A DNA stretch of 14,792 bases, taken from positions 1 through 14,792 of the forward strand of contig JAWOFX010000105.1 of NCBI GenBank assembly GCA_046497275.1, written 5' to 3'. Numbering within the stretch: the first letter of the stretch is position 1; each line of letters begins with the position of its first letter. Positions 2,023-14,493 of the stretch are shown one piece after another. This DNA is from Promethearchaeia archaeon (GTDB lineage Archaea > Asgardarchaeota > Lokiarchaeia > Sigyniarchaeales > SOKP01). The notes below the pieces were generated by a model. That model had not been told where the DNA came from. It did no database searches and saw only the letters and a list, made by a program, of their open reading frames with translations. Both the position numbers and the translations under genes were made by a program.

Positions 2023-4280
<2,258 letters not shown>

Positions 4281-8757: not shown

Positions 8758-10413
8758 ATGAACGACAAATTTTGTTGTGATACTTCTGTAATCTTTTCTG
8801 GTCAAATAATACGCTTGATAGAAGATGGAGATTTAGGCACAAAACCGAATATAATTATTCCTAATGTAGTTGTTGCAGAAATAGAATATCGATCGAATAT
8901 TCAAAAAGAGATTGGATTTTACGGAATAAACATTTTAAAAGAATTGAGAGAGTTTCATAAGAAAGGAGAGATAAATTTAATTATAAGCGGAGACCGTCCA
9001 ACTAGAGATCAGATCAAGCTTTCCCCAGGTGGAGAACTTGATGCGCTCATCAGAGAGGAGGCAATAAAAAATGATGCGCTATTAATTACTACTGACAGAA
9101 TACAAGGAGATGTAGGCATATTTGAAGGATTAGAAGTTTTTTATGTCCATAATCGATCCCCACGTAAACCACGTGATGTATTGGAATTAAAATTATTATA
9201 TTTTTTTGATGATTCCACAATGAGTGTTCACTTGAAGCGAAATAATCCTCCATATGCAAAGAAAGGTTCACCCGGGAATTGGCGATTAGAAAAAATTTCA
9301 AATGATGTAATTTCCAACCAAGAAATTGAAGATATTGCTTATGAAATAGTTGAATTTGTGAGGGAAGATGAGCATTCTTTCATAGAGATAGAAAAAACTG
9401 GCGCAATGGTTGCACAAATGCGAGAATTCAGAATAGTTATAACTCGCCCTCCGTTTTCGAATGACGTTGAAATTACAGCAGTTCGTCCACTTGTAACATT
9501 AGAACTCTCAGATTATTCTATAAATGACCCATTACGACAGAGGTTGGATAAAGCAGAAGGAATATTAGTTTGTGGAGCACCAGGAGCTGGAAAATCTACA
9601 TTTTGCGCAGCTTTAGCCAATTATTATTTAGATCGTGAAAAAGTGGTAAAAACATTAGAAAGTGTAAGAGATCTGCAAGTAAGACCTGAAATCACTCAAT
9701 ATACTAAATTAGAAGGAAGTTTAGAAAATTCTGCGGATGTATTGCTATTAGTTCGTCCTGATTTTACGATATTTGATGAAGTAAGAGTGTTGGAAGATTT
9801 CAAAATATATTCTGATTTTCGGTTATCAGGTGTTGGGATGGTCGGTGTAGTTCATAGTTCCTCGGCGATAGATGCCATTCAGCGATTTATCGGCAGAATT
9901 GAATTGGGGGTATTGCCCTCTATAATAGATACAATTATATTCATTGAAGGTGGAGATATATCTACAGTCTTGGTAGTAAAAATGACTGTCAAGGTCCCTA
10001 CAGGATTTAGAGACAAAGATCTTTCTCGCCCAGTTATAGAAGTAAGAGATTTTCATACGAGAAAACTAGCATTTGAAATATATTCATTTGGGCAAGATGT
10101 AGTTCTAAACCCAATAAATCCCATAAGTTCATCAAGAGGATTCCGAAAATTTGAACAACATTCCACAATGAAGAGACAAAAATCAGGAGAGAGAATACCT
10201 TTAGATATAGATATAAGAGGAAATAAAGTAACAATAAATGCGCCTCAAAATTATTCATCAACCAATATAGAAATCTATTCTAATTCTCAATTAATATTTA
10301 CTGGAGCCCTAAGTAGAAATTCAGATATTAATCTTTCCTTATCAACACGCGAAGGACAAAAAATATTAAAAGAATATGATAGGAATAAGAATCTATATGG
10401 AAGAAAAAAATAG
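8758..10413 (+). CDS. PINA-family PIN domain + P-loop ATPase (archaeal Holliday-junction branch-migration ATPase family)
   Basis: PIN acidic residues CDTSV, VAEIE, LDALI, TTD; Walker A GAPGAGKST; Walker B TIFDEVR; GVVHSSSAIDAIQRFIGRIELG, typical of PINA/VirB11-like archaeal ATPases. Confidence 0.92.
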   Translation: MNDKFCCDTSVIFSGQIIRLIEDGDLGTKPNIIIPNVVVAEIEYRSNIQKEIGFYGINILKELREFHKKGEINLIISGDRPTRDQIKLSPGGELDALIREEAIKNDALLITTDRIQGDVGIFEGLEVFYVHNRSPRKPRDVLELKLLYFFDDSTMSVHLKRNNPPYAKKGSPGNWRLEKISNDVISNQEIEDIAYEIVEFVREDEHSFIEIEKTGAMVAQMREFRIVITRPPFSNDVEITAVRPLVTLELSDYSINDPLRQRLDKAEGILVCGAPGAGKSTFCAALANYYLDREKVVKTLESVRDLQVRPEITQYTKLEGSLENSADVLLLVRPDFTIFDEVRVLEDFKIYSDFRLSGVGMVGVVHSSSAIDAIQRFIGRIELGVLPSIIDTIIFIEGGDISTVLVVKMTVKVPTGFRDKDLSRPVIEVRDFHTRKLAFEIYSFGQDVVLNPINPISSSRGFRKFEQHSTMKRQKSGERIPLDIDIRGNKVTINAPQNYSSTNIEIYSNSQLIFTGALSRNSDINLSLSTREGQKILKEYDRNKNLYGRKK

Positions 10414-10418
10414 TTAAA

Positions 10419-11174
10419 TCAAACCTTTTCTAACTTATCTTTAACTTTTTTAACTATAGGAATTAAAATCTCATTAATATCTTTAAAAAACCTTAAATCA
10501 GCCACATCATCATATGGAGTTTCCCCTAGATTTAAGATAATTAATTTAGCTCCATTATTTTTTGCTTCAACCGGCAAATCTGCTGCTGGTGTCACCACCA
10601 ACGAGGATCCAATGACAAAAAATAAATCTGAATTTTTAGATTTTTCAATTGCTTCATACAATTCATCATAAGGTAAAGGATCTCCAAAATTCACGATACT
10701 AGATATTAATCTACCACCACAATGAGGACAATAAGGTTGATTTTTATTTATTGGACTAGTTCGGTAACCAGGTCCGTATTTAGTTTTATCCCATCCGACT
10801 TCCTCAAATGTGAATTTTCTTTTACATTTCAAGCATTTCATAAAGTAAAGATTACCATGTAATTCTGCGAGCTTATCGAAAGGAATGCCAGCCTTCGCAT
10901 GAAGCCCATCCACATTTTGAGTTATCACATAATCTAAAATACCTAACTCCATTAAATCTACCAAAGCATAATGACCTTCATTTGGTTCAACTTGATCCCA
11001 TGGCGGTGTTTTAGGTGGAGGTAGGCCTTTATCTCTTCGTGTCCAGACGCCATCAGGACCTCTATAATCAGGAAGTCCGCTTGATGTAGAGATTCCCGCT
11101 CCCGTAAATGCTACAAAATTTTCTGATTCTAATATCCAATTGACAGCTTGCTCAATCTTTTCTTCTAGACTCAT
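10419..11174 (-). CDS. sir2: Sir2-family NAD-dependent deacylase, class IV (SIRT6/7)-like
   Basis: TGAGISTSSGLPDYRGPDGVW, TQNVDGLH, AELHGN, zinc ligands CLKC/CPHC, GSSLVVTPA, ILNLGETPYD. Confidence 0.95.
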   Translation of the reverse strand: MSLEEKIEQAVNWILESENFVAFTGAGISTSSGLPDYRGPDGVWTRRDKGLPPPKTPPWDQVEPNEGHYALVDLMELGILDYVITQNVDGLHAKAGIPFDKLAELHGNLYFMKCLKCKRKFTFEEVGWDKTKYGPGYRTSPINKNQPYCPHCGGRLISSIVNFGDPLPYDELYEAIEKSKNSDLFFVIGSSLVVTPAADLPVEAKNNGAKLIILNLGETPYDDVADLRFFKDINEILIPIVKKVKDKLEKV

Positions 11175-13698: not shown

Positions 13699-14493
13699 TT
13701 ATGGTCTGGGAAATCTGCCCGGAAATCTACCTGGAAATCTGCCTGGTCTTCGTCTGGGTCCAAAAGGCCCGGGCCCCCACCTAGTATGCATAAAAGGTCC
13801 ATGTCTGTTATCATGGAGAACATTATCAATAGATAAAACAAATCCGACCAAGATTCTTCTGTCAGTCTCTTTATCGAGTATTTTAAGAGCGTATGTATCT
13901 TGGAAATCAAATATTCCCCCAAGAAAAATATCTCGCCATCTATCTGCTTTTTCTATTTCAGCAACAATTTTTCCCGTAGATAAATCCTCAATCTTATAAC
14001 TCCATCCCATAAATTCTCCTTGAGCTTCATACCAGCGTTTTCCTGATGGATCTTCTAACCAGAATTTAGGACGGAAGAATGAAGTGATTTTTTTCTTAAT
14101 ACGAGCTATGAGATTCCCCTCGGGATCTTTAAGATCTTGAGCCCCTCGAGCTGAAACAATTTTTTCATGGATTGTTGCGGCAACAGTTCCATCCGTTTCT
14201 AGCAATTCGATTTTCCTTCGTAGACTTATAAAGATCCGGTTCATTCGTCCAATAACTTCTCCATTTTCATCATATATGTCACCTCCACCCCAATCCCAGT
14301 ATTTCTCTTTAAGCACATAATATGTTCTGTTAAGATCGAATAATCCCAGTTGATTGGTATCTTGTTTCTGAGATGTTTGCTGAGTAGATTGCGGCGGAGA
14401 TTGAGAACGATTTAATTCTAATTTCTCACCACATTCTTCACAATATCGCTGATTTAAATCATTAATTTTAGAACCACAATTAGGGCAATACAT
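13699..14493 (-). CDS. Zinc-ribbon + LURP-one/phospholipid-scramblase/Tubby-C-like domain protein with Pro/Gly/Arg-rich tail
   Basis: CPNCG..CEECG; Q/S/P linker; YYVLKEKYWDWGGGDIYDENGEVIG..IELLETDG..IARIKKK..FWLEDPSG..GEFMGWSYKIED..VAEI is the repeated beta pattern of LURP/scramblase barrels, ending in the central helix RRILVGFVLSID. Confidence 0.8.
   Translation of the reverse strand: MYCPNCGSKINDLNQRYCEECGEKLELNRSQSPPQSTQQTSQKQDTNQLGLFDLNRTYYVLKEKYWDWGGGDIYDENGEVIGRMNRIFISLRRKIELLETDGTVAATIHEKIVSARGAQDLKDPEGNLIARIKKKITSFFRPKFWLEDPSGKRWYEAQGEFMGWSYKIEDLSTGKIVAEIEKADRWRDIFLGGIFDFQDTYALKILDKETDRRILVGFVLSIDNVLHDNRHGPFMHTRWGPGPFGPRRRPGRFPGRFPGRFPRP
13709..13744. repeat. 3 x 12-bp tandem repeat encoding (PGRF)3 on the minus strand
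   Basis: ggaaatctgccc / ggaaatctacct / ggaaatctgcct. Confidence 0.85.

Follow-up and report, generated by a model that had tools for sequence, protein, structure and literature searches.

The 14,792-nucleotide window analysed here, which is the whole of one contig (JAWOFX010000105.1, our C168) of an Asgard archaeal assembly, carries a complete gene whose product is very probably a functional NAD+-dependent protein-lysine deacylase of the compact class-IV type, belonging to the Asgard SIR2b clade, apparently the counterpart of the Lokiarchaeal enzyme LoSIR2b, and acting most likely on DNA-binding or chromatin proteins. Class IV sirtuins (SIRT6 and SIRT7) are chromatin and genome-stability enzymes that were long treated as eukaryotic, and an Asgard sister clade helps to place this piece of the chromatin toolkit earlier than eukaryogenesis. 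The finding is not new: the phylogenetic relationship was stated in 2022 and the enzyme clade was characterised in a 2026 preprint, and the caution in the first-pass annotation that Asgard sirtuins near class IV may have been reported was well placed, the link between Asgard sirtuins and class IV having been published in 2022. As the point is already in print and under experimental follow-up, the window adds only another well-preserved member of the clade. What is added here is the compact form in a few MAGs labelled as bacterial, the bare catalytic core, and a genome with only five tail-less histones; the retention of the enzyme without tailed histones and the few bacterial MAGs could sharpen the published story, and what interest remains is in the tail-less histones of the genome and in the branching order.

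The sirtuin gene and its conserved motifs

The reading frame opens with ATG and encodes 251 amino acids with no internal stops (Table 1). Judged by its sequence it is a member of the SIR2/sirtuin superfamily with all of the catalytic, NAD-binding and zinc residues in place. The Pfam SIR2 profile (PF02146) matches with 122 bits (cut-off 24), but the match is split in two and skips profile positions 27-57, and NCBIfam gives CobB-type matches only, which are sub-threshold and also split in two stretches; neither Pfam nor NCBIfam finds a domain beyond the SIR2 core in the 251-residue protein. The predicted structure has a pLDDT of 95.5. In an alignment of 62 class-IV-type sequences G25, A26, G27, N87, D89, H106, C114, C149 and C152 are invariant and C117 is nearly so. 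Both of the motifs quoted in the first-pass annotation, GVWTRRDKGLPP and GIPFDKLAELHGN, match the translation exactly, at residues 42-53 and 96-108, and the human SIRT6 motifs that it named as their echoes, GVWTMEERGLAP and GFPRDKLAELHGN, both appear in the SIRT6 alignment. The segment between the two cysteine pairs (...GWDK.K.G.GYRT......QP.C) is kept in the Asgard orthologs, is missing from the compact forms labelled as bacterial and is different in eukaryotes.

Table 1. Coordinates of the sirtuin gene, its motifs and the neighbouring genes within the window
Feature	Position	Strand	Remarks
Complete sirtuin gene	10419..11174	(-)	251 codons + stop; bare SIR2 catalytic core, compact SIRT6-like type
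GAGIS, NAD-binding Rossmann motif, residues 25-29	11088..11102	(-)	G25/A26/G27 invariant and S29 nearly so in 62 class-IV-type sequences
GVWTRRDKGLPP, residues 42-53	11016..11051	(-)	short helix 43-48 where other classes have the flexible cofactor-binding loop and helical module
PNEGH, residues 64-68	10971..10985	(-)	Rossmann fold resumes 19 residues past W44
QNVDGLH, residues 86-92, with NAD-ribose-binding Asn87 and Asp89	10899..10919	(-)	N87, D89 and H92 invariant
GIPFDKLAELHGN, residues 96-108, with catalytic His106 (10857..10859)	10851..10889	(-)	Asn87-to-His106 spacing 19
First zinc Cys pair, C114-x2-C117	10824..10835	(-)	from alignment
Segment between Cys pairs, residues 118-148, ...EEVGWDKTKYGPGYRTSPINKNQPY	10731..10823	(-)	from alignments
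Second zinc Cys pair, C149-P-H-C152	10719..10730	(-)	canonical CxxC, without the vertebrate SIRT6 Cys3-Cys4 insertion
NAD-dependent DNA ligase LigA, bacterial-type, full-length	2244-4280	(+)	840 bits, all domains including BRCT
PIN-domain ATPase, PINA / PRK13764 type	8758-10413	(+)	655 bits; convergent with sirtuin, 5 bases from sirtuin stop
Unannotatable ORF, 129 aa	11393-11782	(+)	between sirtuin and LOR-like/zinc-ribbon gene
IS6/IS240-like DDE transposase gene, 443 aa	12257-13588	(+)	between sirtuin and LOR-like/zinc-ribbon gene
LOR-like/zinc-ribbon gene	13699-14493

Compact architecture and resemblance to SIRT6

The protein has a short connection between W44 and P64, which spans 19 residues compared with about 36-38 in the four other sirtuins of the same genome and in bacterial long forms. 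With only 19 residues to separate GVW from PNEGH the helical module is absent, and this bears out the first-pass annotation, which had put the gap at about 20 residues and the helical bundle as missing; the unmatched Pfam positions 27-57 agree. In the model the only helix between the first Rossmann helix and helix 66-76 is the one at 43-48. The spacing from GAG to QN is 61 residues both here and in fish SIRT6, within the 60-64 of eukaryotic class IV, compared with 77-80 in the long forms. From the asparagine to the catalytic histidine there are 19 residues in this sirtuin and in SIRT6, which have two extra residues between QNxD and the histidine (GxPxxKLxELHGN), and 17 in Sir2Tm. Long forms have a spacing of either 17 or 19, and because a large bacterial family of them has the latter the 19-residue spacing is not exclusive to class IV.

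Amongst all PDB chains the best match is human SIRT6, with an E value of 2e-54 and residues 3-243 of the query set against SIRT6 30-268 in a single, nearly ungapped stretch, a match that is far beyond chance. It is followed by Sir2Tm and Af2 at about 1e-45, in two stretches each, Af1 at 1e-35, SIRT7 at 3e-31 and SIRT1-5 at 1e-17 to 1e-24. The structural comparison with SIRT6 proposed earlier gave the same answer, SIRT6 being the top match.

There are five SIR2 paralogs in the 3.85-Mb genome and the SIRT6-like gene is the odd one out, the four others (loci L001-L004 on contigs C186, C7, C110 and C170) all being long forms that retain the helical module. Of these, L001 and L004 were checked against the PDB and have Af2 and Af1 as their best matches. 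On SIRT6 the Af1/Af2-like paralogs score about 94 bits or less (L001 about 94), compared with 188 bits for the SIRT6-like sirtuin.

No N- or C-terminal extension of the eukaryotic type, as used for nuclear or nucleosome targeting, is found in the 251 residues. Such extensions are accessories of the eukaryotic proteins and stand outside the catalytic-core definition of class IV. Of the features of the SIRT6 orthogroup itself, the protein shows neither the insertion between Cys3 and Cys4 nor a place in the animal and plant SIRT6 clade.

Phylogenetic position

A maximum likelihood tree (77 sequences, 244 columns, LG+C20+F+G4 PMSF) was built from the query and its Asgard orthologs, other compact prokaryotic forms, 32 eukaryotic class IV proteins in four subgroups, bacterial and archaeal long forms and the four paralogs. 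The compact prokaryotic and the eukaryotic class IV sequences form one clade with support of 100/100 on a branch of 0.51, and the class U/III-type long forms, including the Af-like paralogs, fall outside it. Within that clade the eukaryotes are monophyletic (100/100) and so are the compact prokaryotes (97/81), the two being reciprocally monophyletic. The main Asgard clade, which takes in Loki, Thor, Hod, Hermod and Hel lineages and one cluster labelled Heimdall, has support of 96/91, and the SIRT6 clade (100/99) sits within the eukaryotic clade, away from the query. These data support placing the protein with eukaryotic class IV and not with the class U/III-type sirtuins of archaea or bacteria. 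The class IV reading of the first-pass annotation is upheld by this tree together with the sequence and structure matches to SIRT6, and the phylogeny that it had called for gave no robust grouping with class U, III or II in a sample that leaves out genuine animal SIRT7 and classes I and II, the distance to classes I and II being judged from the PDB scores.

The class IV look might instead be convergent, the protein being an ordinary archaeal class U/III sirtuin that lost the helical module independently. The nearest outgroup, the bacterial long forms, does already have the SIRT6-like 19-residue spacing from asparagine to histidine, which lends this some weight, but it is very improbable given that the similarity to SIRT6 spans the whole length and not just the site of the deletion, that the clade with eukaryotic class IV is so well supported on its branch of 0.51, and that the Af1/Af2-like paralogs score so much lower on SIRT6. 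Convergent loss of the helical module was thus rejected on the tree and on the whole-length similarity.

Amongst 1.84 billion cluster representatives the next-best matches past the Asgard cluster are overwhelmingly compact (GAG-to-QN 60-64, Asn-to-His 19), named examples among them being fish SIRT6, a lycophyte SRT1-like protein and sequences from Synchytrium and Paratrimastix. A search for holozoan SIRT7 with Paratrimastix and flatworm class IV proteins as queries returned none, only a broad protist, fungal and nematode group, some members of which are auto-named 'sirtuin-7'. Many protist class IV sirtuins (P0130, P0297, P0308, P0322, P0323 and others) have an N-terminal fusion to a ZnF-UBP domain (PF02148, HDAC6-like), and some of these also carry a C1-like domain (PF03107) or Kelch repeats. 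In three metagenomic compact relatives (P0122, P0132, P0145) the N terminus is extended by about 160-290 residues, which Pfam does not match.

The branching order is less clear. The AU test does not reject a clade made up only of the main Asgard group and the eukaryotes (p = 0.33), and therefore does not discriminate among branching orders of the Asgards, the other compact prokaryotes and the eukaryotes. The protein had been proposed at the outset as an Asgard relative of the ancestor of SIRT6 and SIRT7; a prokaryotic sister clade of eukaryotic class IV stands, and would be the evolutionary place of the protein, but the compact forms among prokaryotes are not confined to Asgards.

Distribution among prokaryotes

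Orthologs were counted in sampled genomes of the same phylum, with this protein as the query and a threshold of E <= 1e-40. The gene is widespread but patchy in the phylum, with a match in 71 of 201 genomes: it is present in 32 of 40 genomes of the same family, in 16 of 21 and 6 of 6 of two other families and in none of the 43 of another. The closest proteins, at 97% down to 70% identity and in more than 100 clusters, come from MAGs named Promethearchaeota, Lokiarchaeota, Thorarchaeota, Hodarchaeota and Hermodarchaeota, and the JGI pipeline (JGI/KEGG-style) labels several orthologs 'mono-ADP-ribosyltransferase sirtuin 6'.

A scan of one genome per prokaryotic species turned up further members of the compact type, 49-54% identical to the query, whose MAGs are labelled Pyrinomonadaceae (Acidobacteriota; L010), uncultured bacterium (L011), Dehalococcoidia (Chloroflexota; L012) and Desulfobacterales (L086). 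The tree places them within the compact prokaryotic clade. They may be genuine bacterial genes or binning errors: the flank of L086 looks bacterial (FxsA, PurD, NifU, YjbQ), and that of L012 is ambiguous (Hdr-like genes, acyl-CoA dehydratase activase). The nearest outgroup of the compact clade is a large, mainly bacterial long-form family (L013-L085) with the 19-residue Asn-to-His spacing, found in Alphaproteobacteria, Chloroflexota, Actinomycetota, Thermodesulfobacteriota and others, and this family may be the long-form stock from which class IV arose.

A distribution of this kind raises the question of horizontal transfer from eukaryotes to Asgards, and to some bacteria, in which case the Asgards would not be an archaeal source of SIRT6 and SIRT7. 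The patchiness, with no match at all in one family of 43 genomes, and the compact forms in MAGs labelled Acidobacteriota, Chloroflexota and Desulfobacterales both speak for transfer, and 'ancient transfers to/from Asgard' are allowed by Grau-Bove et al. (2022, bioRxiv 10.1101/2021.11.30.470311). It is nevertheless unlikely, as the compact prokaryotes are not nested in the sampled eukaryotes, each group being monophyletic with respect to the other, and as identity of at least 70% across Loki, Thor, Hod and Hermod lineages fits a long residence in Asgards.

Genomic neighbourhood

The assembly is 3.85 Mb in size and 98.9% complete. The sirtuin has as neighbours in the window a PINA-like PIN-domain ATPase, a tRNA-splicing endonuclease, a HycI-like protease, a short-chain dehydrogenase and a LigA-type DNA ligase, NAD-dependent DNA ligases being unusual in archaea. 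Eukaryotic contamination of the contig was rejected on the evidence of the archaeal-type tRNA-splicing endonuclease, the PINA-like ATPase and the HycI-like protease, and by the gene order in two other Promethearchaeota MAGs. The order sirtuin, PINA, endonuclease is also found in those two MAGs (L007, L008) and not in a Helarchaeote (L009); the synteny is thus only family-deep and indicates no functional partner. No operon partner of the sirtuin was found at the locus, where the PINA-like gene is convergent and an IS element lies on the flank. The insertion looks recent, because in one of the related MAGs (L007) the LOR-like gene directly adjoins the sirtuin.

SIR2 domains are common in defence systems, and with an IS element adjoining the gene it might be supposed that the protein is the SIR2-domain NADase of an anti-phage defence system. 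The chance of this is practically negligible: neither the protein nor any of its neighbours is matched by PADLOC, the protein has a complete sirtuin zinc module together with the substrate cleft, there is no partner gene, and the gene is a single-copy core gene with synteny at the family level. The defence reading was rejected on the zero PADLOC matches for the protein and its neighbours.

Proposed mechanism and activity

The mechanism of the putative deacylase can be proposed from the conserved residues and the fold. The Rossmann domain, through GAGIS, Gln86, Asn87, Asp89 and the GSS motif, would bind NAD+, with the acyl-lysine entering the cleft between this domain and the small Cys4 zinc module. 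His106 would act as the general base in ADP-ribosyl-peptidyl-imidate chemistry, with the release of nicotinamide and O-acyl-ADP-ribose. The mobile cofactor-binding loop is predicted to be replaced, as in SIRT6, by a short fixed helix (GVWT) and the helical module would be gone, and the protein appears to be the catalytic core only, with neither an N- or C-terminal extension nor a fused targeting domain.

The main activity could instead be like the side activities of SIRT6, that is the removal of long-chain fatty-acyl groups or mono-ADP-ribosylation, and not deacetylation. The architecture is SIRT6-like and some orthologs are annotated as mono-ADP-ribosyltransferases, both of which point this way, yet it is quite improbable as the main activity. 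The alignment begins at SIRT6 residue about 28-30, and the N-terminal segment that is thereby missing helps to form the long acyl pocket in the SIRT6-myristoyl structure. LoSIR2b is, furthermore, an efficient NAD-dependent peptide deacetylase. On free peptides the eukaryotic class IV enzymes deacetylate poorly, and the finding of a zymograph survey that class IV lacks significant peptide deacylase activity (PMC10652111) can be set on the side of such activities; because of this, robust deacetylase activity is not to be assumed from class membership.

Histones and probable substrates

For an NAD+-dependent deacylase of this kind the likeliest substrates would be lysine-acetylated DNA-binding or chromatin proteins, as for LoSIR2b in vitro, and chromatin proteins are our best guess for the substrate. 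The genome has five histone genes by Pfam PF00808 (L087-L091, on contigs C8, C59, C51, C61 and C121), and a profile made from these histones returned the same five only, and no tailed histone, when run over all six-frame ORFs of at least 50 residues. The five are 67-72 residues long and have no more than about 8 residues ahead of the fold (MAKKKHTF..., MAKKTESY...); the lysine-rich tail of 25 or more residues that served as the substrate of LoSIR2b has no counterpart among them, and the tailed histone HLoB.2 has no equivalent in the genome. Four Alba genes are found elsewhere in it.

With only these five tail-less histones, histone tails are an unlikely substrate in this organism, and as there are no long-tailed histones the substrates here would be short histone N-termini or cores, Alba or others. 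Action on chromatin proteins, as suggested in the first-pass annotation, fits the published assays of LoSIR2b, with histone tails the part that is unlikely for this genome. Provided that this genome is representative, the role conserved across the clade cannot be tail deacetylation.

A bolder reading takes the compact Asgard clade for the progenitor, by vertical inheritance, of every eukaryotic class IV sirtuin (SIRT6, SIRT7 and relatives), and holds that its ancestral job was not histone-tail deacetylation, since the clade is kept in Asgards with only tail-less histones, this one among them. This is possible but doubtful. Were it true, the first targets would have been other nucleoid proteins (Alba, histone cores, short N-termini) or proteins outside chromatin, and tail deacetylation would have been co-opted later.

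Comparison with known systems

The class III/U prokaryotic sirtuins Sir2-Af1 and Af2 of Archaeoglobus and Sir2Tm of Thermotoga share with this protein the same catalytic chemistry, the Rossmann domain and Cys4 zinc module and a similar length. They differ in keeping the helical module, about 17 extra residues, which is why their alignment to the query falls into two stretches, and they superpose on it with an rmsd of about 4.3 A. Human SIRT6 (PDB 3K35, 3PKI, 3ZG6, 8G57) lacks the helical module, as the query does, and aligns to the query over about residues 28-270; its residues 1 to about 27 and its C-terminal extension of about 85 residues are absent from the archaeal protein. The insertion between zinc Cys3 and Cys4 in vertebrate-type SIRT6 (about 10 residues in fish SIRT6) is absent from the archaeal C-P-H-C, and the archaeal protein has its own conserved segment between the cysteine pairs, without the eukaryotic 'HTGRxC' motif before Cys3.

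An Asgard sirtuin clade from Loki- and Heimdallarchaeota was placed as sister to eukaryotic SIRT7 by Grau-Bove et al. (2022, bioRxiv 10.1101/2021.11.30.470311). Its members are the same kind of protein, and Asgard compact sirtuins likewise stand beside eukaryotic class IV in the present tree, although here the compact prokaryotes are sister to all of the sampled eukaryotic class IV (SIRT6, plant SRT1-like and a broad protist/fungal group) and not to one subfamily, the two topologies not being strictly comparable because genuine holozoan SIRT7 is outside the present sample.

The closest system known is that of the cultured Lokiarchaeon 'Loki-B35', three sirtuins of which were described in a preprint of July 2026 (bioRxiv 10.64898/2026.07.02.735847). 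LoSIR2a is a long form (N106/H123, spacing 17), which one of the paralogs in the present genome, L004, resembles, and LoSIR2c is a long form by sequence. Purified LoSIR2b removed acetyl groups from Loki histone-tail peptides, whether fully or singly acetylated, and from a yeast H4K16ac peptide, in each case only in the presence of NAD+; the predicted model of the enzyme with a bound histone tail was set against the SIRT6-nucleosome structure 8G57, and Asgard SIR2 catalytic domains fused to a yeast targeting domain restored silencing (10.64898/2026.07.02.735847). The authors of the preprint deliberately drew no inference on the ancestry of the enzymes. LoSIR2b (GNAMCCOK_01652, SIR2b clade) comes from a different organism and was not found among the retrieved proteins by a search with a short motif; its identity to the present protein is roughly half by eye, the likeness being judged from motifs in the supplementary table. 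By that measure the two have in common the exact run PDYRGPDGVWTRRDKGLPP, together with GYRTSPI and NQPxCPxCGGRLISSxVNFGDP, and LoSIR2b has the same compact architecture, length class, full set of catalytic residues and canonical CxxC pairs, and the same Asgard-specific segment of the zinc module (W..KWG.GYRTSPI..NQP.CP.CGGRLISS.VNFGDP).
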